NCBI GenBank assembly: GCA_025057395.1
Contig: JANWXU010000006.1
Coordinates: 592 to 64,591 of the forward strand
Direction of reading: 5' to 3'
Length of the DNA: 64,000 nucleotides
Origin: Bacteroidia bacterium
Lineage (GTDB): Bacteria; Bacteroidota; Bacteroidia; J057; JANWXU01
Below are positions 1,094-14,301 of this stretch, piece by piece (position 1 is the stretch's first letter; each line of letters opens with the position of its first letter). The notes beneath the pieces are model-generated. The model was not told where the DNA came from, searched no databases, and saw only the letters and a list, made by a program, of their open reading frames with translations. Position numbers and translations under genes: made by a program.

Positions 1094-3709
1094 TTAGCTT
1101 TGAGCAGCAAGAACTTGATTAGAAAAAACAAATTGATTCCTTTCATCCACAGAAACATGAATAGCATTATTGGCAATAATATTGCCAGCAAGAATTTCCT
1201 TGGAAAGCTCATTCACAATTTTTCTTTGTAAGACCCTTTTAAGAGGACGCGCCCCAAACTGAGGATCAAAGCCTAGCTGCGCTAACCAGTCAATTGCTTC
1301 TTCACTAAATGTAATAGTAATATTTTGCTGCTTTAAAAGTTGCGAGAGATTGTTTAGCTGAATTTTTACAATTTCTTTTACCTCCTCTCGTGTTAGAGGA
1401 GTAAACATAATAATGTCGTCGATACGATTTAAAAACTCAGGACGTAAAGTCTTCTTAAGTAAATCAAAAACTTGAATCTTTACGCGATTAATGATTTCCC
1501 ATCGGTTAAACTCAGTAATATTCTCAAATTCCTGCTGAATTAAATGAGCTCCAAGATTGGAAGTCATGATAATAATGGTGTTTCTGAAATTTGCTGTCCT
1601 TCCTTTGTTATCCGTGAGACGGCCATCATCGAGTACTTGGAGCAAAATATTAAATACATCAGGATGTGCTTTTTCAATTTCATCCAGTAACACAACGGAA
1701 TAGGGCTTTCTACGAATTGCTTCAGTAAGTTGTCCACCCTCATCGTAGCCTACATAACCAGGAGGAGCCCCAATTAGTCTGCTAACAGAATGCTTCTCCT
1801 GATACTCCGACATATCGATGCGTACCATTGCATTTTCGTCATTAAAAAGATAATCGGCAAGAGATTTTGCCAGCTCCGTTTTACCTACACCTGTAGGACC
1901 AATAAAGATAAAAGAACCTATAGGCTTTCGAGGGTCATGTAATCCGGCACGACTTCTACGAATAGCATTGCTAATAGATTCAATAGCTTCCTCTTGGCCT
2001 ACTACCCTTTTATGTAATTCTTCCTCCATTTTAAGAAGTTTAGTACGCTCGCTCTCTAGCATTTTATTGACAGGTATACCTGTCCAGCGGCTTACAATTT
2101 CTGCAATTTGCTCGGCATCTACTTCTTGACGTAATAAACGTTTTTCCCCTGCCTGGTTAAGTTTTTCTAATAATTGAGAGATCTTTTTTTCCTCCTCAAT
2201 AATTCTTCCATAACGGATTTCGGCTGCCTTTCCCCAGTCTGCATTCATTTCAGCCTTTTGAGCTTCAATCTTAAGTGCTTCGATATTTTCTTGAGCAGTT
2301 CGAATTTGCTGTATAAGCGTTTTTTCTTCCTCCCATTTTGCCCTTAAATGGTTCCTTTCTGCCATTAAATTAGCAATTTGCTCACTTAAAGGACGCAGTG
2401 CCTCTTCCCCCTTTTCGCGTTTCAGAGCCTCGCGCTCTATTTCTAGCTTACGAATTTTTCTTTCTATTTCATCTATTTCTTCGGGCAAAGAATCAATTTC
2501 AATTTTAAGTTTTGCTGCAGCCTCGTCCATCAAATCAATAGCCTTATCAGGAAGGAACCTATCAGAAATATAACGATGAGATAATTCTACAGCAGCAACA
2601 ATAGCAGCGTCTGTAATTTTCACTCCGTGATGTACTTCATACTTTTCTTTGAGTCCCCGTAAAATAGAAATAGCATCCTCTACATCTGGCTCGTCAACAA
2701 AAACAGGTTGGAACCTTCTTTCTAATGCCTTATCTTTCTCTATATACTTTTGATATTCAGCAAGGGTAGTAGCCCCAATTGCACGAAGCTCCCCTCTTGC
2801 AAGAGCTGGCTTCATAATATTAGCCGCATCCATAGCTCCATCTGCTCTACCTGCCCCCACCAAAGTATGAATTTCATCAATAAACATAATAATTTCCCCT
2901 TGGGAATTGGCAACTTCTTTAACCACAGCCTTAAGCCTTTCCTCAAAATCACCGCGATATTTAGCACCTGCAAGCAAAGCCCCCATATCTAAAGAGACAA
3001 TGCGCTTATTTTTCAGATTTTCGGGCACATCACCCTGTACAATTCTGTGGGCAATTCCTTCGGCAATAGCTGTTTTTCCTACTCCGGGCTCACCAATCAG
3101 AATAGGATTATTTTTACTTCGCCTTGAGAGTATTTGCATTACTCGCCGAATTTCTTCGTCTCTTCCAATAACAGGGTCAAGTTTATTCTCTCTTGCCAAC
3201 TCAGTGAGGTCTATGCTAAAGCGCTTAAGAGCATTGTACCTGGTCTCTGCTCCACGATCTGTAACTTTGTCTCCACCTCTTAATTCTTTAATAACCTTAA
3301 GTAAATCCTTTTCCTGCAGTCCCTGGTCTTTAAGCAGTTGTGCTGCCTTATCATTTGATTTAAGCAGAGCAAGCAACAAATGCTCTAGAGTAATAAATTC
3401 ATCTTGCATAGAGCCGGCAATTTTATTTGCCTGCTCTAATACCTGATAACTATCATTACTCAGATATTGGCCCCCTGTAGCCCCATACACTTTGGGATAA
3501 GAACTTATTAACTCTTCCAGTTTTTGCGATAGGTAAGTAATGTTAACATTTGCTTTCTTGAGTAAGAAAGGAATTATGGATTCATCAGTTAAAAGAAGTG
3601 CCTTCAGCAGATGCGCTGGCTCTATAGCTTGCTGATTATACGACTTTGCAATTTCAGCAGCCTCCTGAACCGCTTCTTGTGCTTTTATGGTATAATTATT
3701 AAAGTTCAT
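1094..3709 (-). CDS. clpB: ATP-dependent chaperone ClpB
   Basis: Clp N-domain, two AAA+ modules (GEPGVGKT; GPTGVGKT), long coiled-coil middle domain, [19 protein letters not shown]. Confidence 0.97.
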
Positions 3710-3880: not shown

Positions 3881-4846
3881 ATGGTCAATAACGCCAATGA
3901 TACTTCGTTATGGAATGAGCTAAAAATACTTTGGTTATATCGATATTGGATTTTAAGCCTAAGCAGCGTAGTAGTGTTGGGCACTCTTGTTTATACCCTT
4001 CCTTTCGTAACCCCTCCTGAATATTTGGCTGTAAGTTCATTTATCCCACCTAGCTTGGAAGACATTAAGTCTTTAAATTTTTTAAAAATCAAATTCAATG
4101 GCTTTGGTGCAGCCAAAGATGAGGACTTAGAAAGGTACGCTGCTGCTCTACAATCTGATAGCGCCTTTTATTGGATAGAAAAAAAGTTTAATCTTACTAA
4201 GTATTACGGATTAGAAGATATTTCGGACCCTAGTAAGAGAGAAAAAAAACTTAGAGAAAAATATAACGAACAAATTAAAATTAAAGTTACTGCCCTTTCT
4301 ACCGTAGAAATTCAAGTATATGATACAGACCCCCAACATGGAGCTGCTATAGCGAATGCTTTTCTAGATTACGCAGATAATTTTACCGAAAAAATAGCCA
4401 GAAGAAAAGAAGGAATAGCACTACTTGAAAAAAGCCTGGCAGAAATACAAAATATTAGAAAGCAACTTCAAGATACATTAGGATACTACAGAAGTCGCTA
4501 CAAAATTTACCATTTCGATGATTTAAGTGAAGTAGTCTCGGCCCGTATTCTTACAGAAGGATTTAACCAAAGAGAATTTCATCAGTACTACGATAAAGTG
4601 CAAGCCATAGAACATCAATTACGCTACCTAGAAGAGCATATTGCCGATATGTTTAACGAACTAGTTTTTCGAAAAGAAAATTTACAAACCTACCCTAGCT
4701 TAATTAGTATTGTTAGTTATGGCATTCCTTCTAAAGTGAGGGTGCGCCCCCAAAGACTGATTTATCTAAGTTTATCCACTATCTTTAGCTTGTTTTTATT
4801 TAGCATAGGTGCCATCTATTACCATAAATACAAGCATAAAAATTGA
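3881..4846 (+). CDS. Wzz/GumC-like polysaccharide chain-length determinant family protein
   Basis: N- and C-terminal TM helices, central coiled coil, 'VYDTDPQHGAAIANAF', proline-rich 'PSKVRVRPQR' before the last TM. Confidence 0.75.
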   Translation: MVNNANDTSLWNELKILWLYRYWILSLSSVVVLGTLVYTLPFVTPPEYLAVSSFIPPSLEDIKSLNFLKIKFNGFGAAKDEDLERYAAALQSDSAFYWIEKKFNLTKYYGLEDISDPSKREKKLREKYNEQIKIKVTALSTVEIQVYDTDPQHGAAIANAFLDYADNFTEKIARRKEGIALLEKSLAEIQNIRKQLQDTLGYYRSRYKIYHFDDLSEVVSARILTEGFNQREFHQYYDKVQAIEHQLRYLEEHIADMFNELVFRKENLQTYPSLISIVSYGIPSKVRVRPQRLIYLSLSTIFSLFLFSIGAIYYHKYKHKN

Positions 4847-4912: not shown

Positions 4913-5749
4913 ATGGAAAACCAAATTTGCTTAATTACAGGTTGTAATACGGGAATTGGTAAAGTAACTGCCATTGAATTAGCCAAAAGGGGGGCTACTA
5001 TTATTATGGCCTGCCGCAACCAAGTAAAAGCTGAAAGGGCAAAAGTAGAGATTATTGCCCAGAGTCAAAACCCCAGAATAGACCTCTTCTTAGTAGACTT
5101 ATCTCTACAAAGCTCCATTCGAAAATTTGCCGAAGCTGTGCACAAAAAATATAACAAAATAGATATCCTTATCAATAATGCTGGTGCAATTTATTACCAC
5201 CGCTACGTTACCCCCGAAAAAATTGAGCTAACCTTTGCTGTTAACCACCTAGCTTATTTTTTGGTAACCCACTTGCTTTTAGACCTTATAAAAGCTGCGC
5301 CCCAAGGAAGAATTATTAATGTCGCTTCGAGAGCCCACCAAGGATATACTATCGACTTTAATGACTTAATGGGCGAAAAAAACTATTCTCCTTTCAAAGC
5401 CTATGGACAGTCGAAGCTAGCTAATATTATGTTTACTTACAAGCTCGCAGAATATCTACAGGGAACAAAAGTTACTGCTAACTGCTTACATCCAGGACTT
5501 GTAAATACAGAATTTGCTCGTGATATGCCTTTCTGGTTTCGAATGATTTTTACTTATTTAGGCTTAACGCCTGAAAAAGGAGCCGAAACTACAATTTACT
5601 TGGCTACTGAACCCTCTCTTGCTGGCGTTACGGGAAAATATTTTTACAAAAAAAAGGAAGCTAAAACCTCGTATATTTCCTATGACAAAAATATACAACA
5701 ACAACTTTGGGATATAAGTCTAAAACTTGTGGGTATACATCAATTTTGA
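4913..5749 (+). CDS. Short-chain dehydrogenase/reductase (retinol dehydrogenase-like)
   Basis: TGCNTGIG, NNAG, YGQSK catalytic motif, LHPGLVNT. Confidence 0.93.
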   Translation: MENQICLITGCNTGIGKVTAIELAKRGATIIMACRNQVKAERAKVEIIAQSQNPRIDLFLVDLSLQSSIRKFAEAVHKKYNKIDILINNAGAIYYHRYVTPEKIELTFAVNHLAYFLVTHLLLDLIKAAPQGRIINVASRAHQGYTIDFNDLMGEKNYSPFKAYGQSKLANIMFTYKLAEYLQGTKVTANCLHPGLVNTEFARDMPFWFRMIFTYLGLTPEKGAETTIYLATEPSLAGVTGKYFYKKKEAKTSYISYDKNIQQQLWDISLKLVGIHQF

Positions 5750-5776
5750 GTTTTAGGGATATTCCTCTAAAACTTA
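5747..5776 (+). terminator. Hairpin at the end of the SDR gene, possible terminator
   Basis: AGTTTTAG-GGA-tat-TCC-t-CTAAAACT stem overlapping the stop codon. Confidence 0.45.
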
Positions 5777-5877
5777 GGCTGCCTAACACTTAAACTTAGA
5801 ATTTCATCGTTAAATTTATGATTGGCAGTATTACTTGCCTAGGGCCCTTATTTTTCAAAAAGAGTGTAAAATTTTTA

Positions 5878-5885
5878 TAAATTTG
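5878..5885 (+). promoter_or_regulatory. Bacteroidota -7 promoter box (TAAATTTG) for the decarboxylase cluster
   Basis: TAnnTTTG about 60 nt upstream of ATG 5948. Confidence 0.45.
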
Positions 5886-5947
5886 AATAAACATAAACCT
5901 GCTTTAATTTTTTTCTTATAATTGCTAGAATATAAAAATGAACTACA

Positions 5948-8770
5948 ATGCAAAACGTGAGTACTGCTAGTTCTTCTTATCTGGTAAGCCATTATAACGC
6001 TTCTCAACTAAGAACAGATACCTGGAACCGCTTAAAGCACAAGGCGCTTCTTCTAAATGAAATCTATAAAAATGCTCAAAAGAAAAAAAATTTACTCCTA
6101 GAAGTTATTACTAAAGTCAAAGAGTATCTAAATATCCTAGAGCAAGTTGAAAATTATTTTGCTTTTCCAGGAAAAGAAAGATTTAGTGATATTAAAAAAC
6201 TTTTTGAAAGAGAAGATTATCGCCTTTTTGCTCATCGGGTAGTAAAAATCGTAAATATTCTGTTTAGTGAAGGATACAGACAAGTACCCGCCTGGCAAAT
6301 ACGTCTTGATGATGATTCTCTAGCTGCCTCCTTTTCAGTAGGACAACACTCTACAGCGGCAATTAATAGGCACTATTTTGAAGTGCTCTATGTCGCTAAC
6401 TTCACGCTGGAAGAAGAAAAAGACATAAGAGCACGCCTTCTAGCTATGCAACAAGAAATTACAGACTTTTTTTATGATATTGTCTTTGTGCCTAGCTTCG
6501 AAGACGCCCTTATCGCCATTAATTTTAACTACAATATCCAAAGCTGTGTAATTCACTATGGCTTTAATCTTAAATCTTCGATGCCCTTAGGACAATTACG
6601 AGATTATTTTAATATAGAAGAAGAAGAAGAATGGATAAATGATAAATTTTCAATGGAATATAGTTCACGTTTAGGAAAAGTTTTGCATCGTTTTCGTCCG
6701 GAACTAGATCTTTACCTGATTACAGAAGCCCTAGTCGAAGATTTTGCCACTTTCGATACTCATCAAAGTTTTCGAAGAGTTTTTTATGGCAAAGAAAATT
6801 TTTTAGAGCTTCATTTAAGCATCTTACGTGGTATCGATGAGCGCTATGAAACACCATTTTTTAACGCCCTCAAAGCTTATAGCCAGCGCCCCACAGGAGT
6901 ATTTCATGCTATGCCTATCTCAAGAGGAAATTCAGTATTTCGCTCTCATTGGATACAAGATATGGGGCATTTTTACGGCACTAATATATTTTTAGCAGAA
7001 ACTTCTGCTACAACTGGTGGTTTAGATTCACTATTGCAACCTACAGGACCGCTAAAAAAAGCACAAGAAAGAGCTGCATATGCTTTTGGTGCTCAATATA
7101 CATTTTTTGTTACTAACGGTACTTCTACTGCTAATAAAATTGTAGTACAGGCCCTAGTACAACCGGGTGACATAGTTCTAATAGACCGTGACTGCCATAA
7201 ATCTCACCACTACGGTTTAGTACTTAGCGGCGCATATCCCATTTACTTGGACTCTTATCCTGTACAGCAATATTGTTTATATGGTGCTGTGCCTCTAACA
7301 GAAATAAAAAGAAAATTACTTACGCTCAAAAGAGAAGGGCTATTAGATAAAGTAAAAGTCCTTTTGCTTACCAATTCTACATTTGATGGTATTGTTTACC
7401 ACGTGGAAAAAGTAATGCTAGAGGTACTGGCTATCAAACCTGATATGGTATTTCTATGGGATGAAGCATGGTGGGGCTTTGCTCGCTTTGTGCCTACTTA
7501 CCGCCAAAGGACAGCTATGCACGCCGCTAGTACTATTCTCGAAAAGCTTCAAAGTAGTGAATATCGTGCTAATTATTTGTTATATAAACAAAAATTGGAG
7601 GAACTAGAATCACAACCAGGATGGAATAAAGAAGAATGGATGATCAATAATCCTTTATTACCAGATCCTGATAAAGTTCGAATACGCGTCTATGCTACCC
7701 AATCTACCCACAAAACCCTTACCTCTTTGCGCCAAGGGGCTATGATTCATATTTATGATCAAGATTTTAAACTTAAAGTAGAAGATGCTTTCCACGAAGC
7801 TTATATGACCCACACCTCTACTTCTCCTAACTATCAAATTTTGGCTTCCTTAGATATTGCTCGAAGGCAAGTAGAACTTGAAGGCTATGAAATGGTACAA
7901 AAATGTATTGAAAACGCCATGAGCATCCGCGAAAAGCTTAAGCTCCACCCTACCATTCGCCAAATGTTTACTCTATTGGGCCCCAAAGATATGATTCCTG
8001 AAATTTACCGTCCTTCTAAAATTGAATATTATTACGACCCAGAATTAGGATGGGGAAAAATGTATGAAGCATGGAAACAAGACGAATTCGTACTAGATCC
8101 TACCCACATCACCCTATTCACTGGCAAAGCAGGTATTGACGGTAATCTGTTTAAGAACGAATATTTAATGAATCGCTACAGCGTACAAGTAAATAAAACT
8201 TCTATCAACTCTGTACTATTCATGACTAACATTGGCACTTCTCGAAGTGCTGTAGCTTTTCTCATTAGTGTACTAAGTAAAATTGCACGCTCCCTAGTAA
8301 TTGAACAAAGCCAGTTCTCCAGGGAAGAGCAAGCTGTACATCAAAAAAGAGTAGAGCAACTAACCCACAACCTTCCTCCCTTACCAGATTTTAGTAGCTT
8401 TCATCCCGCCTTCCGTCCATATGAAAATATTAGTGCCGGCGATATACGCAAGGCTTATTTCCTAGCCTTTCAGGAAGATAATTGCGAGTATATTCCTATA
8501 ACAGAAGCATTATATGCTGTTGAAAATGAGCAAACACTTGTTTCAGCTTACTTCGTAATTCCGTATCCCCCGGGCTTTCCTATACTAGTACCAGGTCAAG
8601 TTATAACTTACGAAATTCTATCTTTTTTAAAAGCTCTAGATGTTAAAGAAATTCATGGTTATAAGCCTGAAATAGGACTAAAAATTTTCAAAGAAAAAGT
8701 TCTTGCTGAATATATTTCTAGTGAAAAAGTTACTAATGGACAAGCCAATAGGCACATAACCCTGGGGTAG
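5948..8770 (+). CDS. Large fold-type-I PLP-dependent amino-acid decarboxylase (Orn/Lys/Arg decarboxylase family, Rv2531c-like)
   Basis: GGLDSLLQP, FFVTNGTSTANKIV, DRDCHKSHH, TFDG, DEAW, PLP lysine in QSTHKT, HTSTSPNYQILASLD, C-terminal IPYPPGFPILVPG; about 300-aa N-terminal extension. Confidence 0.92.
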   Translation: MQNVSTASSSYLVSHYNASQLRTDTWNRLKHKALLLNEIYKNAQKKKNLLLEVITKVKEYLNILEQVENYFAFPGKERFSDIKKLFEREDYRLFAHRVVKIVNILFSEGYRQVPAWQIRLDDDSLAASFSVGQHSTAAINRHYFEVLYVANFTLEEEKDIRARLLAMQQEITDFFYDIVFVPSFEDALIAINFNYNIQSCVIHYGFNLKSSMPLGQLRDYFNIEEEEEWINDKFSMEYSSRLGKVLHRFRPELDLYLITEALVEDFATFDTHQSFRRVFYGKENFLELHLSILRGIDERYETPFFNALKAYSQRPTGVFHAMPISRGNSVFRSHWIQDMGHFYGTNIFLAETSATTGGLDSLLQPTGPLKKAQERAAYAFGAQYTFFVTNGTSTANKIVVQALVQPGDIVLIDRDCHKSHHYGLVLSGAYPIYLDSYPVQQYCLYGAVPLTEIKRKLLTLKREGLLDKVKVLLLTNSTFDGIVYHVEKVMLEVLAIKPDMVFLWDEAWWGFARFVPTYRQRTAMHAASTILEKLQSSEYRANYLLYKQKLEELESQPGWNKEEWMINNPLLPDPDKVRIRVYATQSTHKTLTSLRQGAMIHIYDQDFKLKVEDAFHEAYMTHTSTSPNYQILASLDIARRQVELEGYEMVQKCIENAMSIREKLKLHPTIRQMFTLLGPKDMIPEIYRPSKIEYYYDPELGWGKMYEAWKQDEFVLDPTHITLFTGKAGIDGNLFKNEYLMNRYSVQVNKTSINSVLFMTNIGTSRSAVAFLISVLSKIARSLVIEQSQFSREEQAVHQKRVEQLTHNLPPLPDFSSFHPAFRPYENISAGDIRKAYFLAFQEDNCEYIPITEALYAVENEQTLVSAYFVIPYPPGFPILVPGQVITYEILSFLKALDVKEIHGYKPEIGLKIFKEKVLAEYISSEKVTNGQANRHITLG

Positions 8771-8799
8771 TAGGGTAGAAAAAAAATAAAAAAATAATA

Positions 8800-10491
8800 A
8801 TGCTAGAATTTTGGAATTGGCAGTGGAAGTTTTTTAGAAATTGGATACACACATGCTATCATCTTTTTTTTAGTACATATAACTTTTTTGTAAAAGTACT
8901 AGCACCACCCTTAATAAAAAGCAACCCAACTTTGGAAATACAACCTAAACAACAATTATTAAAACTACCATATGAAAATCATAAAAAATCAACAATTCAT
9001 ACTAATAAACTAATGCAAGTTATGCCAGGGCAAAATAAACGTATATTAAAAGGTCTACCTGAAATTCGAAGATTTTTCTTTAAAAATTCTACGCCTATTT
9101 ACTTCATTAGCCCTACTAACTTCAACTTACTAGGGCTGGATGAATGGGTAAAAAGTTTTAAATACATTTCTTATATCGACTGTTATGATAAGCAGCATCC
9201 CAATGTATTTGTTCCTAGTGAAAAGCCTCATGATCTTTTTGAAAGTATCGAAGAGGTGAACAACTACCTCTTAGAACACAAAGAAGTGGTAGATTATATC
9301 AATAAAAGGGGACCAGGCGGAATTGCACTTTTTCTAATGTTCGACGAAAAAACCGAATCCCTTTGCCAGGAACTTGATTTAAAAGTGGGCTTCCCTTCAG
9401 CAAAACTAAGAAACTATGTTGATAATAAAGTAGTAACTACCCGAATTGCTGAAAAAGCAGGAGTTCCTTGCGTACCTAATGTTTTAGGAAAAGTATCAAA
9501 CTATGAGTCCTTGCTTGGGCTAGCAGGAGACCTGGGTACAGACTTGGTAGTTCAACTTCCTTACGGAGATTCCGGTAATACTACTTTTTTTATATCTTCT
9601 TCAGAAGATTGGGAAAGATATAAAGATAAAATCACTGCGGAGCCAGAAGTGAAAATTATGAAACGAATTAATTGTCGCGGCTCTGCTATGGAAGCTTGTG
9701 TAACAAGACACGGAACTATCGTAGCTCCCCTAATGACTGAACTAATTGGCTTTAAATCTCTAACGCCCTACAAAGGGGGATGGTGCGGCAATGAACTTTA
9801 TGCAGATGTCTTTACTCCCGAAATACGAGAACAAGCTAGAAAATATACAGAAAGCTTTGGTAATGCCCTCCGTGAAGAGGGATACATTGGCTATTTTGAG
9901 CTAGATTTCTTAATTGATACTGATACACAAAAATTATACTTAGGCGAACTTAACCCACGAATTACCGGCGCTAGCTCTATTACTAATCATGCAGTTTTTG
10001 CTCTTGCTGATATGCCCCTGTTTTTATTTCACCTGATTGAATTCATGGACGTAGACTATGAAATAGATGTAGAAGAAATCAATCAGCGCTGGAATGACCC
10101 TGATAATATCGATACCTGGAGTCAATTGGTACTTAAAAGAACAGAGGAATCCTTAGAATGGGTAACTCAAGCTCCCCCCACGGGCATTTGGTCAATGGAT
10201 AGAAATGGAGATATCAAATTTTCTCGCTTTGATACTCACCGTAGGGCTGTAGAAAATGAATGGGAAGCTTTCTTTTTGCGCATCATTAAGCCGGGAGATG
10301 TATGGTACAAGGGAGCTGACTTAGGAATATTGGTAACTCGAGGAAGGTTAATGACCGATGATTTTAAGCTTAATGCCCGTGCCCATGCCTGGATAAGTGG
10401 ATTACAACAACACTTTAAAACTACCCCCTATGAACCCCATTATTCTTATAAAGTACCTTCTGAGACTTATGAACCCTTTAAGCTTCTATAA
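8800..10491 (+). CDS. ATP-grasp fold ligase (often auto-annotated 'biotin carboxylase'); conserved core starts near 9013
   Basis: DNK...IAEKAGVPCVP, VVQLPYGDSGNTTFF, GYFELDFL, LGELNPRITG (E-x-N-P-R ATP-grasp signature). Confidence 0.85.
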   Translation: MLEFWNWQWKFFRNWIHTCYHLFFSTYNFFVKVLAPPLIKSNPTLEIQPKQQLLKLPYENHKKSTIHTNKLMQVMPGQNKRILKGLPEIRRFFFKNSTPIYFISPTNFNLLGLDEWVKSFKYISYIDCYDKQHPNVFVPSEKPHDLFESIEEVNNYLLEHKEVVDYINKRGPGGIALFLMFDEKTESLCQELDLKVGFPSAKLRNYVDNKVVTTRIAEKAGVPCVPNVLGKVSNYESLLGLAGDLGTDLVVQLPYGDSGNTTFFISSSEDWERYKDKITAEPEVKIMKRINCRGSAMEACVTRHGTIVAPLMTELIGFKSLTPYKGGWCGNELYADVFTPEIREQARKYTESFGNALREEGYIGYFELDFLIDTDTQKLYLGELNPRITGASSITNHAVFALADMPLFLFHLIEFMDVDYEIDVEEINQRWNDPDNIDTWSQLVLKRTEESLEWVTQAPPTGIWSMDRNGDIKFSRFDTHRRAVENEWEAFFLRIIKPGDVWYKGADLGILVTRGRLMTDDFKLNARAHAWISGLQQHFKTTPYEPHYSYKVPSETYEPFKLL

Positions 10492-10517
10492 TTAGGTAGC
10501 CGTAAAAAGGGTAAAAA

Positions 10518-11486
10518 ATGAATTATATTTATTTGCAAACCCTCTATGAAACGCAACCTGGCGCCAAATGGCAAAATTTTTTCAATACACATTGGCCTAA
10601 TTACAAAAAGTGGTATTTAAGTAAAGGCGAAAAACAAAGGCCCGGTTTTTTAACATGCCAAAAACAACTTAAAAAGTATATGCCTGAACTTTTTCCTATC
10701 TGGGAAAAACTGGTAGAACTTGCGGGAGGCGGAGACTTGCAGGCTCGTTTTCTGAGCCTGTATAATCCCCCTCCCTTTGTTGCTGGCTGCAGCCAAATGG
10801 TATGGTTACAAGAACCCCTAGCTCTGGTGCGAAATTATGACTATTCTCCTCATCTTTTTGACGCCACCTTGTTACACACTCAGTGGTGCCAGCCTGTAAT
10901 TGCCGTTTCAGACTGTTTATGGGGCGCTTTAGACGGAATTAATGCCGCAGGATTATGTGTCTCTCTGGCTTTTGGGGGCAGTCAAAAAACAGGTGAGGGC
11001 TTTGCTATTACCCTAATTTTACGTTATCTTTTAGAGTGCTGCTACAATGTAAATGTAGCTTGCCAGGCTTTACAGAAAATTCCTTCTCATATGGCCTATA
11101 ATGTATTACTTCTAGATAGCAATGGCAACCATATGCTCGCTCAATTAGCTCCTGAACAAGAGCCCCAATTTTCTAAAGCTCTTTTTTCTACAAATCATCA
11201 GTGCAATTCCCAATGGTTGAAATATTTACAAATTAGCCAAACTTATGAACGATACCAATACCTTGAACACTTATTTTCTACTCCCACTTTAAACCTAGAT
11301 TCAATAATTAGAGCTTTACTAAATCCTCCCCTTTATAGCACCCGTTTTGATAGAGGCTTTGGTACGTTATATACTGCAGCCTACTATCCTACTTATTTAT
11401 CTGCTACTTTTCATTGGCCAGGTTTAAAATTAGAAAGAAATTTTTCTTCTACCGACGAACCAGCTTTTCATATTCAATACACCTAA
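10518..11486 (+). CDS. C45 family Ntn-hydrolase/acyltransferase (AAT/Tan-like, autoproteolytic)
   Basis: Pro-segment followed by G|CS nucleophile site (AGCSQ), RNYDY, DGINAAGL, TNH motif. Confidence 0.88.
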   Translation: MNYIYLQTLYETQPGAKWQNFFNTHWPNYKKWYLSKGEKQRPGFLTCQKQLKKYMPELFPIWEKLVELAGGGDLQARFLSLYNPPPFVAGCSQMVWLQEPLALVRNYDYSPHLFDATLLHTQWCQPVIAVSDCLWGALDGINAAGLCVSLAFGGSQKTGEGFAITLILRYLLECCYNVNVACQALQKIPSHMAYNVLLLDSNGNHMLAQLAPEQEPQFSKALFSTNHQCNSQWLKYLQISQTYERYQYLEHLFSTPTLNLDSIIRALLNPPLYSTRFDRGFGTLYTAAYYPTYLSATFHWPGLKLERNFSSTDEPAFHIQYT

Positions 11487-11515: not shown

Positions 11516-12979
11516 ATGCGCAATGGGCGAATTGTTTTTTTTAACATTATTGTATTGTTGTGGGCTCTATCTTTCAATGGACAGAGTCAAAATAAAAATA
11601 TTCATCGCTATTTCGAAAAAATTAGAAATAATGAGGCTCTCCTAACCGCCTTCTTCATGCAAATGCCTAAAGGCGGAGACTTACACCATCACTTCAGTGG
11701 CTCTGTATATGCCGAAACTTACCTGGAGTATGCAATAGAAAATAATTACTGGCTCAACCGTAATACCCTAGAAGTAGCCATTGAAAAAAAGTCAGAAGAC
11801 CCAGTATGGACACAGTTTTCCACCCTCCAAAGCGAAGGCTCTTTAAATCTTTACCGTTCAAAATTACTACAAAAATGGTCAGTTAAAGACTACAACCTTA
11901 GCAATATACCTCCTGATAAGCTATTTTTTGAAACTTTTGCTTATTTCAGTCCTATTAGTAAACAACCTAATTGTATCGCAAAGGGATTACTAGAATTAAA
12001 ACACAGAGCAAAAATTGAAAATGTAAGCTACCTAGAAACTATGCTTTCTACTGTCCCTTGCTCACCGCCCCCTCCAGGAATAGAAAAATATAACTTTCGT
12101 CTGCGCCAAATTCAAAATCAAAGAGATACACTAGCGCTATTTAGCTTATTAGATTCTCTTTTGCCCCTATTAAATCTCGAACGCCTAGAAAACTGCGCAG
12201 AAACCTATGCCAAAAACAATAGGAGAATGCATGATAGCCTGCAGCTAGACGAGTCAGATTTTATTATTCGTTATCAAACTTACGTACATAGGCACAGCGA
12301 GCCTACGGCTTTATTTCAAAGCCTGTGGATTGCATTTGCCGCTTCCCAAAAAAGTCCTCTCATTGTAGGTGTAAATATTGTAGGAGCAGAAGACCATCCT
12401 ATTGCGCTCCAAGACTACTGGCTCCATATGGCCATGTTTCGCTATTGCCATAAAAAATTTCCTGCTGTAAAATATGCTCTACATGCCGGAGAATTAACCC
12501 TCGGCTTTGTAAAACCCGAAGAACTTACTTGGCATATTCAAGAAGCTATCTTTTTAGCTCAAGCTCATAGAGTCGGGCATGGTGTTGATATTATGCATGA
12601 AAGTCAAATTTTTGAAATTTTAAAATGGATGCACACCCAAAAAATACCTGTGGAAATTAACCTAAGCAGTAACGAATTTATCCTAGGAGTAAAAGGAAAT
12701 AAGCACCCTATTGAGTTATATTTTCAACATAAAGTACCTATTGTAATTTGCAGTGATGATGCCGGAGTTTTACGCAATAACTTTACACATCAATTTGTGC
12801 TTCTTGCGCAAAGGTATAGAAAAATTAGGTATAAGCATATTAAAGAGTTTATTTTTAACAGTCTACACTATGCTTTCATTGAAGAAGAAAGCCTTAAGAA
12901 GGCACTAATTCAAAATCTGGAAAAACGCTTTGCTTACTTTGAAAAAAAAATACTTCAAAACTGCTATAAAAAATTGTGA
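11516..12979 (+). CDS. Secreted adenosine deaminase (ADA2/ADGF-like)
   Basis: N-terminal signal peptide, MPKGGDLHHH, HAGE, RVGHG, VEINLSSN, SDD metal ligands. Confidence 0.88.
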   Translation: MRNGRIVFFNIIVLLWALSFNGQSQNKNIHRYFEKIRNNEALLTAFFMQMPKGGDLHHHFSGSVYAETYLEYAIENNYWLNRNTLEVAIEKKSEDPVWTQFSTLQSEGSLNLYRSKLLQKWSVKDYNLSNIPPDKLFFETFAYFSPISKQPNCIAKGLLELKHRAKIENVSYLETMLSTVPCSPPPPGIEKYNFRLRQIQNQRDTLALFSLLDSLLPLLNLERLENCAETYAKNNRRMHDSLQLDESDFIIRYQTYVHRHSEPTALFQSLWIAFAASQKSPLIVGVNIVGAEDHPIALQDYWLHMAMFRYCHKKFPAVKYALHAGELTLGFVKPEELTWHIQEAIFLAQAHRVGHGVDIMHESQIFEILKWMHTQKIPVEINLSSNEFILGVKGNKHPIELYFQHKVPIVICSDDAGVLRNNFTHQFVLLAQRYRKIRYKHIKEFIFNSLHYAFIEEESLKKALIQNLEKRFAYFEKKILQNCYKKL

Positions 12980-13008: not shown

Positions 13009-14301
13009 CTAATCACTAGAATTTAATGAATACTTTTCTCCCCACTTCAACCGAATAAATTGTTGAATTTCCTTTTCTTTACCAATAGGCTTAGGCAAAT
13101 AAAATACTTTTCCTTCTAAACCTGGGGGCATAAATTCTTGCCTAGCCATAGGATTAAAAATATCAAAATCATGTTCATATAAATAGTTTTTACCATATCC
13201 CCAGTCTTTCATAGTATCAGTTACAGGATTTCTTAAGTGTAAAGGCACAGGAGGATTATGTTGAGTGCGAACTACTTCTAGAGCTTTTTCTATTCCTACA
13301 TACGAAGCATTACTTTTTAAGGAAGTAGCTAAATATACAGCACATTGGGCAAGAATAATTCTTGCTTCGGGCATTCCTATTACAGAAACTGCTTGAAAAC
13401 AACTGGTGGCCAGTACTAAAGCATTAGGATTAGCATTTCCAATATCCTCAGAAGCTAGAATTATCATCCTACGAGCAATAAATTGTACATCTTCGCCACC
13501 CTCTAACATTCTAGCTAACCAATATAAAGCGGCATTAGGATCACTACCTCGAATGCTTTTGATAAATGCAGAAATAATATCATAATGCTGCTCTCCTGCT
13601 TTATCGTAAAAAATACTCTTTCTTTGAGCTACTCTAGCTACTAACTCATTGGTGATTATAATTTTTTCCTCTTCCTTGTGCTGCAATACACATAGCTCTA
13701 ATAAATTTAGTGCTTTACGCGCATCGCCATTAGAAATATGGAAAAAGGCATCATATTCGCAAATTTCAATAGAGCGCTTTTTTAGTAGGCTATCTTGCTG
13801 CAAAGCACGCTTTAATATTTTTGCAATTGCCTCCTGAGTTAGAGGGCGCAATGTAAGCACCTGACAGCGCGAAAGGAGAGCGGGTATTATTTCAAAAGAG
13901 GGATTTTCCGTGGTAGCTCCTATAAGGGTTATAAGACCAGTTTCCACTGCATGTAAAAGAGCATCCTGCTGCGCTTTATTAAAGCGATGTATTTCGTCGA
14001 TAAACAAAATAAGTCCCTTACGTACCTTTGCAGATTCAAGAATGACTCTAATTTCCTTAACTCCTGCCTGCACAGCACTTATCATTTCCAATTCTCTTCC
14101 TAAAGCAGAAGCTAAGATATATACTAGCGTTGTCTTTCCTACACCTGGGGGCCCCCAAAATACTAGAGAAGGAAGAAATTGGTTTTGTATAAAATTAAAC
14201 AATAGCTGCCCTGCGGCAGTAAGATGCTCTTGCCCTATTAATTCTTCTAAAGTTCGAGGACGAACTCTTTCTGCTAAGGGAGGAAGGTCAGTCAACCTCA
14301 A
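13009..14301 (-). CDS. rarA: Replication-associated recombination protein A (RarA/MgsA)
   Basis: PLAERVRP, GPPGVGKT, DEIHRFNKAQQD, GATTENPSF, SAFIKSIRGSDP, ASEDIGNA, VPLHLRN. Confidence 0.96.
   Translation of the reverse strand: MRLTDLPPLAERVRPRTLEELIGQEHLTAAGQLLFNFIQNQFLPSLVFWGPPGVGKTTLVYILASALGRELEMISAVQAGVKEIRVILESAKVRKGLILFIDEIHRFNKAQQDALLHAVETGLITLIGATTENPSFEIIPALLSRCQVLTLRPLTQEAIAKILKRALQQDSLLKKRSIEICEYDAFFHISNGDARKALNLLELCVLQHKEEEKIIITNELVARVAQRKSIFYDKAGEQHYDIISAFIKSIRGSDPNAALYWLARMLEGGEDVQFIARRMIILASEDIGNANPNALVLATSCFQAVSVIGMPEARIILAQCAVYLATSLKSNASYVGIEKALEVVRTQHNPPVPLHLRNPVTDTMKDWGYGKNYLYEHDFDIFNPMARQEFMPPGLEGKVFYLPKPIGKEKEIQQFIRLKWGEKYSLNSSD

Follow-up and report, generated by a model that had tools for sequence, protein, structure and literature searches.

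Three adjacent, co-oriented genes in a 64,000-nucleotide stretch of Bacteroidia bacterium DNA (contig JANWXU010000006.1; the whole stretch is called the window here) encode a long pyridoxal 5′-phosphate (PLP)-dependent decarboxylase, an ATP-grasp ligase, and a peptidase C45-family hydrolase. We consider it fairly probable that these enzymes run a cycle, in which glutamate is converted to γ-aminobutyrate (GABA), GABA is built into a conjugate with ATP, and hydrolysis of the conjugate releases GABA again. A preliminary description of the sequence had proposed the logic of an amine maker followed by an ATP-dependent ligase and a hydrolase, which holds by homology and synteny. The co-oriented trio and its catalytic motifs were also borne out, as QSTHK (Lys589), ELNPR (residues 312–316), and AG/CS (Gly90-Cys91, the slash marking the predicted cleavage) are present in the three proteins, respectively.

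Three steps would make up the cycle. First, the 940-aa PLP enzyme would decarboxylate L-glutamate to GABA, as its characterized homolog and conserved residues suggest. Second, the ATP-grasp enzyme would use ATP to activate the GABA carboxyl group, presumably through the acyl phosphate typical of ATP-grasp ligases, and join it to an abundant acceptor at a hydroxyl or amino group, in keeping with family membership and gene context. The conjugate would stay inside the cell, buffering or storing GABA. Third, the C45 protein would cleave itself between Gly90 and Cys91 and then hydrolyze the conjugate to GABA and the acceptor, a step suggested by gene context. In most other genomes, a GabT-like aminotransferase and a succinate-semialdehyde dehydrogenase (SSADH)-like enzyme of the same operon would pass GABA on to succinate. 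A preprint on Mycobacterium tuberculosis suggests that conjugation serves to buffer GABA while its oxidation is blocked and retains carbon and nitrogen in the cell (bioRxiv 10.64898/2026.04.15.718621); by analogy, such a role would fit the window system.

The decarboxylase scores 261 bits on PF01276 (Orn/Lys/Arg decarboxylase major domain). Among solved structures, M. tuberculosis Rv2531c (PDB 9N0N/9N0O, 796 bits) is by far the closest, with query residues 12–922 aligned to residues 16–904 of the 9n0n chain over all four domains. Rv2531c is the 'long' four-domain form of the decarboxylase family, a class of ~940 aa with N-terminal helical, receiver-like, catalytic, and C-terminal domains, whose limits we took from the Fig. 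1 legend of the structural paper (PMC12329521). The window protein belongs to the same length class (940 versus 947 aa) and has the same architecture. Its PLP-binding Lys589 aligns with STHK of the Rv2531c chain and is invariant in 64 of 64 aligned homologs from syntenic loci.

In a 2026 PNAS paper, six residues of Rv2531c (His405, Lys406, Arg576, Thr606, Arg718, and Asn731) are tied to glutamate recognition and PLP handling (PMC13506015). Five of them are identical in the window protein (His417, Lys418, Arg595, Thr625, and Asn749), and the sixth differs, as Arg718 is replaced by Lys736. This pattern is kept in all 64 aligned homologs (63 for Lys736). According to the same paper, genetics, metabolomics, and enzymology established Rv2531c, described as a 'cloaked' glutamate decarboxylase, as an L-glutamate decarboxylase that feeds the GABA shunt and is inactive on Lys, Orn, and Arg, and Flavobacteriia sequences share its similarity-network cluster (PMC13506015). 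Because of the 796-bit match, the conserved active site, and the Flavobacteriia members of that cluster, we infer that the first gene encodes a glutamate decarboxylase, which would produce GABA. Among the amines suggested in the preliminary description, GABA is thus retained by homology to Rv2531c, and β-alanine and polyamines are not favored.

Alternatively, the decarboxylase could act on a basic amino acid, while the ligase and hydrolase would form and cleave a polyamine conjugate comparable to glutathionylspermidine. The Pfam and NCBIfam names (Orn/Lys/Arg decarboxylase) and the weaker PDB matches, which are lysine, arginine, and ornithine decarboxylases, would agree with this. However, the NCBIfam Lys/Arg/Orn decarboxylase models score far under their cut-offs (for example, 209 bits versus 968), the best full-length match is an enzyme inactive on all three amino acids, the Arg proposed to bind the γ-carboxylate is kept in 64 of 64 homologs, and the usual neighbors resemble the GABA shunt rather than polyamine genes. 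We therefore regard a polyamine conjugate as very improbable.

The second protein passes the NCBIfam 'equivalog' model NF005096 (PRK06524, named 'biotin carboxylase') with 765.5 bits against a curated cut-off of 684. An M. tuberculosis protein, P0131, which we take to contain Rv1722, also exceeds the cut-off (849.3 bits) and is 46% identical to the window ligase over 438 aa. ELNPR, numbered in the 492-aa form of the window protein, aligns with EVNPR of P0131, and the ATP-grasp motifs are common to both; E312, N314, P315, and R316 are invariant in an alignment of 20 homologs. P0131 carries PF00144, is annotated 'biotin carboxylase-like protein', matches no accC model at E ≤ 1e-20, and is the sole M. 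tuberculosis member among the matches listed. Rv1722 is annotated as 'possible carboxylase' beside a 'probable hydrolase'. The mycobacterial relatives of P0131 are 80–90% identical to it, in line with the BLAST result in the preprint.

Rv1722 (GabtS), an ATP-grasp enzyme formerly annotated as a (biotin) carboxylase, was purified and shown to form 6′-GABA-trehalose from GABA, trehalose, and ATP; GABA-trehalose is an ester that reaches millimolar levels under hypoxia and nitric oxide, as given in the preprint (bioRxiv 10.64898/2026.04.15.718621). The window ligase is predicted to be a GABA-carboxyl ligase in a sister subfamily of this GABA-trehalose synthetase. GABA is proposed as its substrate because an Rv2531c-type decarboxylase is adjacent and GabT-like and SSADH-like genes are neighbors elsewhere.

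The two subfamilies were separated with a FastTree phylogeny of 168 family members. The midpoint split left 110 rows, containing all 81 syntenic-locus sequences with the window included, and 58 rows, containing the mycobacterial-type sequences and most fusion proteins. The window ligase lies within a 99%-supported set of 75 rows made of syntenic-locus sequences only, and thus stands beside, not within, the characterized mycobacterial subfamily. Compared with GabtS, it has a C45 partner instead of one with the β-lactamase fold, and the acceptor, and perhaps the type of bond, may differ.

The family is large, as at least 7000 database proteins match the ligase among 8000 candidates scored, and 2320 clusters at 50% identity match with E ≤ 0.001 (347 with E ≤ 1e-30). 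The best 120 matches are 63–73% identical, those with taxon names cover several phyla, and every named protein among them is called 'biotin carboxylase' or 'hypothetical'. That the protein is a true biotin carboxylase, as the NCBI name says, is hardly credible. Apart from the name, the only sign of it is weak similarity to biotin carboxylase domains (E values of 1e-5 to 1e-2 in the PDB). The protein scores ~20–28 bits on accC and pyruvate carboxylase models, against cut-offs of 597–1114 (597–768 for the accC models), and the characterized family member is a ligase according to the preprint (bioRxiv 10.64898/2026.04.15.718621). The window's contig in the assembly (C211) has no biotinyl domain or carboxyltransferase; the 6 and 4 matches to these, respectively, are all on other contigs of the genome, and the real accC-like gene adjoins a biotinyl-domain gene on contig C1. 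The preliminary description had called a biotin carboxylase implausible with no carrier or carboxyltransferase nearby, and the accC scores (~21–28 bits) and the content of C211 agree.

An AlphaFold2 model of the ligase, made from a 20-sequence alignment, was poor (predicted local distance difference test, pLDDT, of 64.7). The Foldseek matches shown for it were all ATP-grasp proteins (PurK, biotin carboxylase, RizA, CPS, PurD/PurT, and Ddl), with probability 1.00 and template modeling (TM) scores of 0.34–0.45. Because the model is poor and these matches are generic at TM ~0.4, we drew nothing about the substrate from structure.

Longer proteins of the ligase family were also inspected. Among the 14 in the matches listed, seven carry PF00144, in both domain orders, and one carries the PF01425 amidase-signature domain; the Pfam domains were confirmed on re-checking four of the fused proteins. 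An apparent decarboxylase–ligase fusion (P0134, 1009 aa) was not counted, as its middle part matches out-of-frame open reading frames (ORFs) of the ligase region and it is probably a frameshift chimera. Five other long proteins (P0124–P0128) had no Pfam domain, and P0125 and P0128 had none again on re-checking. The N-terminus of P0125 is only low-complexity sequence rich in Ala, Thr, and Pro, and gave no usable match in the ESM Atlas.

Gene neighborhoods were examined by scanning one genome per species with the window ligase. The best 80 of 423 confirmed matches were taken as loci, a sample that leans to close relatives. ORFs of at least 90 aa were clustered, families were counted on the strand of the ligase within 9 kb, and the 46 loci whose flanks extended at least 7 kb upstream and 5 kb downstream were treated as fully flanked. 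The 80 loci span Bacteroidota (most), Rhodothermota, Chloroflexota, Deinococcota, Gemmatimonadota, Ignavibacteriota, Bdellovibrionota, and Alpha- and Gammaproteobacteria. The decarboxylase was found in 74 of the 80 loci (44 of the 46 fully flanked) and C45 in 63 (39 of 46, downstream of the ligase), so that co-occurrence of the trio across phyla, a check proposed in the preliminary description, was obtained.

Other families recur with them: a CN-hydrolase (Nit2-like) in 61 loci (41 fully flanked), a class-III aminotransferase (GabT-like) in 48 (37), a 136-aa protein in 41 (30), an aldehyde dehydrogenase (SSADH-like) in 39 (25), and an APC permease in 12 (8). The aminotransferase and dehydrogenase are nearest to the models of GABA aminotransferase (496 bits versus a cut-off of 676) and SSADH (507 versus 730), respectively. 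The nearest solved relatives of the CN-hydrolase include Nit2 and yeast Nit3, and the 136-aa protein has a VOC/glyoxalase fold (profile versus PDB, E value of 7e-8; AlphaFold model pLDDT of 87). Genes of the cluster are typically arranged as aminotransferase, CN-hydrolase, VOC, decarboxylase, (permease), ligase, C45, and dehydrogenase. Thus, the trio usually sits within a larger cluster, and the earlier idea of a self-contained cycle does not apply to most genomes.

Co-occurrence was also seen at the genome level. Among 40 genomes of the same order, the ligase ortholog occurs in 3, and the long decarboxylase occurs in exactly those 3, adjacent to the ligase each time, versus none of the other 37. 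The three carriers have the order of aminotransferase, CN-hydrolase, (VOC), decarboxylase, ligase, and dehydrogenase. Because of the synteny across phyla and this genome-level co-occurrence (3/3 versus 0/37), we regard the trio as a functional unit.

Genes inserted between the decarboxylase and the ligase were considered as further pathway parts and rejected, because those in loci L012, L013, L064, and L077 are unrelated genes. They include an Eco47II-type restriction enzyme with a C5 methylase, a GT9 glycosyltransferase, a Fic protein, and a DUF4143 ATPase. Such inserts lie at L012:5664-9947, L013:5758-9947, L064:7713-9887, and L077:7189-9887, in several Flavobacteriales loci, and the decarboxylase/ligase junction looks like a recurrent insertion point.

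The third protein is a member of the peptidase C45 family by its model scores (PF03417, 106.3 bits versus 23.2; NF040521, 158.8 bits versus a cut-off of 85) and its conserved site, as Gly90-Cys91 (local sequence VAG/CSQ) is invariant in 62 of 62 aligned homologs. It had no match by sequence to solved structures at E ≤ 0.01. C45 is the least constant member of the trio. All 46 fully flanked loci have C45 or the Nit2-like CN-hydrolase.

Neighborhoods of mycobacterial-type ligases were taken from a metagenome scan with a mycobacterial-type alignment, which gave 80 further loci. In the near-mycobacterial loci (at least 70% identical to the reference, n = 32), a PF00144 gene (β-lactamase fold) directly follows the ligase in 22, and in 13 of the 16 whose flanks reach at least 1.2 kb on either side. 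Of the more distant loci of this subfamily (n = 48, any flank), 16 have PF00144 nearby, 10 have C45, 5 an amidase, and 4 the long decarboxylase; when restricted to those with flanks (n = 19), PF00144 was found in 10 (4 of them also with the decarboxylase), C45 in 5, and none of these in 4. The decarboxylase of the distant loci is ~50% identical to that of the window (~890 bits).

A hydrolase therefore partners the ligase in both subfamilies, with its fold interchangeable between unrelated folds, and an Rv2531c-type decarboxylase can adjoin the ligase in both. That both subfamilies keep a hydrolase and can adjoin the decarboxylase speaks more strongly than anything else for a single metabolite handled by decarboxylase, ligase, and hydrolase.

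The larger cluster could also be read otherwise: the ligase would mask the GABA carboxyl, the conjugate would be the substrate of the GabT-like and SSADH-like enzymes, and the Nit2-like or C45 enzyme would free succinate and the acceptor. In many loci the GabT-like and Nit2-like genes are closely linked (with a 4-bp overlap in L016), Nit2 and Nit3 are among the solved relatives of the CN-hydrolase, and no fully flanked locus is without C45 or the Nit2-like gene, seven having the latter only. However, ATP would be spent without evident gain, since free GABA is already an ordinary GabT substrate; no homolog is known to act so, the nearest analogy being γ-glutamylation of putrescine in the Puu and Pau pathways; and neither the GabT-like nor the Nit2-like gene adjoins the trio in the window. 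We consider catabolism of a masked GABA quite unlikely.

Returning to the cycle of GABA conjugation and release, several observations weigh against it. The C45 gene is absent from 7 of the 46 fully flanked loci, and in these seven neither PF00144 nor an amidase stands in for it within 10 kb. No C45 gene was found at E ≤ 1e-10 in the 40 same-order genomes, including the 3 with both decarboxylase and ligase. The window ligase lies outside the mycobacterial subfamily, in its sister group, so that carrying over the substrate would be an extrapolation; moreover, P0131 is assumed to contain Rv1722 from its annotation wording and the H37Rv map, not from a match to UniProt P71980. In the window's own genome, the GabT-like ortholog (56% identical) is on a different contig, surrounded by unrelated genes (G000:C168:31664-32941), and no close SSADH-like ortholog was found, the best being 27–29% identical. 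A spacer of 242 bp between the first two genes, described below, allows separate promoters for them. Finally, two points concern the acceptor. A search of the window's genome (96% complete) for OtsA (PF00982), TreS (TIGR02456), and TreY (TIGR02401) found none of them, and enzymes of the C45, amidase-signature, and CN-hydrolase types usually act on amides, more in line with an amide product than with the ester of M. tuberculosis.

The acceptor was considered further with 30 cluster-bearing genomes, of which 10 have OtsA, 5 TreS, and 3 TreY above the respective cut-offs, with a union of 12. In the other 18, which include three cultured isolates and two single-chromosome assemblies, none of the three was found, though many others are incomplete. 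Among cultured carriers, no OtsA, TreS, or TreY was found in Taibaiella lutea, Brumimicrobium mesophilum, or B. glaciale, and OtsA is present in Psychroflexus and Robertkochia. The search covered these three enzymes, with imported trehalose and routes such as TreT and TreP lying outside it. Because no trehalose-synthesis genes were found in most carriers and the partner hydrolases are classic amidases, the acceptor here is probably not trehalose, and an amide product is a live possibility in the window-type subfamily. The preliminary description had the ligase forming an amide, which is accordingly still a live possibility, although the one characterized family member makes an ester to a sugar hydroxyl according to the preprint (bioRxiv 10.64898/2026.04.15.718621).

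It is unlikely that the system equals the mycobacterial one exactly, with the ligase making 6′-GABA-trehalose and C45 serving as a GABA-trehalose esterase. For this identity, the two ligases both exceed the cut-off of one and the same equivalog model, the family has no demonstrated acceptor other than trehalose (bioRxiv 10.64898/2026.04.15.718621), and 12 of the 30 carriers have a gene for its synthesis. Against it, such genes were not found in the window's genome and the 18 carriers, as searched above, and the window ligase is in a different subfamily. We put forward, only tentatively and at less than even chances, that the non-mycobacterial subfamily makes a yet-undescribed GABA conjugate instead of GABA-trehalose, such as a homocarnosine-like amide with an amine or amino acid, or short GABA oligomers as a nitrogen and carbon store. 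This would explain both the amidase-fold partners (C45, amidase signature, β-lactamase fold, and CN-hydrolase) and the carriers, the majority, in which trehalose synthesis was not found.

The window itself holds a reduced, rearranged version of the cluster, consisting of the trio and an unrelated secreted-type deaminase gene. GabT-like, Nit2-like, VOC, and SSADH-like genes do not adjoin the trio. Elsewhere in the genome, the Nit2-like CN-hydrolase is represented only by a 42-residue match at a contig start (G000:C169:10-135), and no close VOC ortholog was found. The displaced GabT-like ortholog adjoins two response-regulator/GAF/SpoIIE-phosphatase genes. It could be argued that the trio is merely adjacent here, a rearranged remnant that may no longer work as a unit, since the usual neighbors are missing and the spacer separates the first two genes. 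However, the three frames are intact with conserved catalytic residues, and order and strand recur in 39–44 of 46 loci across phyla, which makes chance adjacency hard to believe.

The layout of the trio is given in Table 1. As longest ORFs, all on the + strand, the genes span 5948–8770 (940 aa), 8800–10491 (563 aa), and 10518–11486 (322 aa), followed by a fourth ORF at 11516–12979 (487 aa), and the gaps between the trio ORFs are 29 bp (decarboxylase/ATP-grasp) and 26 bp (ATP-grasp/C45). These are the gaps of the preliminary description, which are correct as ORF-to-ORF distances. However, the Met codon at 9013 corresponds to the start of 20 of 20 aligned ATP-grasp homologs, the same protein has 492 aa in its database gene model (P0001), and the 71-aa N-terminal extension of the longest ORF has no homolog in 160 related loci (best E value of 0.18). 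The ligase start is therefore most likely at 9013, as predicted from these alignments, and the first gap would then be 242 bp at 25.6% GC rather than 29 bp.

Table 1 Features of the decarboxylase–ligase–C45 locus in the window
Feature	Position	Strand	Basis
Long-form four-domain PLP decarboxylase, Rv2531c type, predicted L-glutamate to GABA	5948..8770	+	PF01276 and 9n0n alignment
Ser586-Thr-His-Lys589 codons, PLP-binding Lys included	7703..7714	+	STHK at residue 586
AT-rich spacer (25.6% GC), decarboxylase stop to supported ATP-grasp start	8771..9012	+	Homolog starts
ATP-grasp ligase, NCBIfam NF005096 (PRK06524), predicted GABA-carboxyl ligase	9013..10491	+	NF005096 score
Glu312-Leu-Asn-Pro-Arg316 codons, ATP-grasp Mg/ATP-loop motif	9946..9960	+	Alignment
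C45-family N-terminal nucleophile (Ntn) hydrolase/acyltransferase proenzyme, candidate GABA-releasing enzyme	10518..11486	+	PF03417, NF040521
Gly90-Cys91 codons, predicted autoproteolysis site and nucleophile	10785..10790	+	VAG/CSQ, alignment
TAAATTTG, match to Bacteroidota-type -7 consensus TAnnTTTG, weak evidence	5878..5885	+	63 nt 5′ of decarboxylase start

The single -7 box of the preliminary description, TAAATTTG, is indeed the sole + strand match to TAnnTTTG in 5750–5948; however, the window contains the motif no more often than shuffled sequence does (88 observed versus 82.7 expected). None is present on the + strand of the spacer (8771–9012). Wider scans of promoter-like sites (19 versus 21.1 expected) and terminator-like sites (7 versus 5.5 expected) were at the chance level. 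The sequencing runs listed for this DNA are of DNA only and come from a single study. The spacer could house an internal promoter or a regulatory element. In many other loci the decarboxylase and ligase genes are closely spaced or overlapping, unlike in the window.

The fourth co-oriented gene, overlooked in the preliminary description, starts 29 bp after C45 and encodes an adenosine-deaminase-related protein. It has a weak ADGF-type match (74.7 bits versus a cut-off of 315), a signal-peptide-like N-terminus, and HHH, HAGE, and SDD motifs, and no such gene lies beside the trio in any of the 80 related loci. It is probably an unrelated secreted enzyme. Other flanking genes encode ClpB (1094–3709, −), a 321-aa protein (3881–4846, +) with hydrophobic stretches near both ends and no Pfam or NCBIfam match, a short-chain dehydrogenase/reductase (SDR) oxidoreductase (4913–5749, +), and RarA/MgsA (13009–14301, −). 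None of these four is kept beside the trio in other loci. The GC content of the window is 42–43% at ~20–30 kb versus 34–39% around, and the GC skew is strongly negative (−0.376) at 34–36 kb.

Known systems share parts of this design. In Drosophila, Black, Ebony, and Tan form a triad in which an ω-amino acid made by a PLP decarboxylase is conjugated through its carboxyl group by an enzyme that uses ATP, a step undone by Tan, a Cys hydrolase of the C45 family. The trio in the window has the same decarboxylate–conjugate–release logic, but Ebony is an adenylating enzyme resembling nonribosomal peptide synthetases and not an ATP-grasp enzyme, the amino acid is β-alanine made from aspartate, and the acceptors are biogenic amines. 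Homology between the two systems is confined to the C45 member.

The Puu pathway of Escherichia coli and the Pau pathway of Pseudomonas aeruginosa likewise pair an ATP-dependent ligase with an amide hydrolase, alongside a class-III aminotransferase, an aldehyde dehydrogenase, and an APC permease, and lead from GABA to succinate. However, their ligase is glutamine-synthetase-like and their hydrolase class-I amidotransferase-like, whereas the window has ATP-grasp and C45 enzymes, and it is the amine that is masked there, whereas here the GABA carboxyl would be ligated, by homology to GabtS. The resemblance is thus one of pathway logic only.

The nylon-oligomer hydrolases NylA, NylB, and NylC cleave amides of the ω-amino acid 6-aminohexanoate. 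Their fold classes (amidase signature, β-lactamase fold, and Ntn, respectively) are those found beside or fused to the ligase family, although NylC belongs to an Ntn family other than C45. The comparison is a lead for an amide or oligomer product rather than evidence of it.

Within M. tuberculosis, the genes of Rv2531c and Rv1722 lie apart, judging from their locus numbers, whereas their homologs are adjacent in the window and in 44 of 46 loci. In an earlier survey, Rv1722 ('Carboxylase') and Rv2531 ('Arginine decarboxylase') are both listed as high-confidence horizontally acquired genes of the M. tuberculosis lineage (PMC3087520, Table 2). Horizontal acquisition of both fits an origin from such an operon.

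Literature searches found no paper joining the decarboxylase, ATP-grasp, and C45 enzymes, none on PRK06524, and none on an operon of glutamate decarboxylase, ATP-grasp, and GABA, and the Rv1722 preprint (bioRxiv 10.64898/2026.04.15.718621) was the only source found for GABA-trehalose. In term searches, neither that preprint nor the PNAS paper (PMC13506015) mentions the gene of the other, gene neighborhoods, operons, C45, or a hydrolase. Compared with the literature found, the operon linkage, the hydrolase partner of interchangeable fold, the embedding in a GABA shunt, and the spread beyond mycobacteria are new, although supplements (Table S1 of the preprint and the network files of the PNAS paper) could hold such data. 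The statement in the preliminary description that no characterized pathway has this trio no longer fully holds, as two of the three enzymes now have characterized M. tuberculosis homologs. The first two steps were shown, in 2026, only for M. tuberculosis, while the gene cluster is conserved in many environmental bacteria.

Rv2531c and Rv1722, treated separately in 2026, thus have homologs outside mycobacteria that are neighbors in one conserved operon, and this operon is independent genomic support for both M. tuberculosis assignments. The ligase work also corrects the misleading database name 'biotin carboxylase'. The preprint leaves the breakdown pathway as an open question and says that the metabolite 'appears to be unique to mycobacteria' (bioRxiv 10.64898/2026.04.15.718621). 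For breakdown of a GABA conjugate, the operon gives candidates, namely C45 in the window and a β-lactamase-fold or amidase protein elsewhere, and its gene content alone argues against a chemistry 'unique to mycobacteria'. The window represents another subfamily, with another hydrolase and probably another acceptor, than the system first described in 2026. If the non-mycobacterial subfamily does make an undescribed conjugate, a whole class of GABA-derived metabolites would await discovery in environmental bacteria of more than 8 phyla, and M. tuberculosis would owe both of its enzymes to such an operon.

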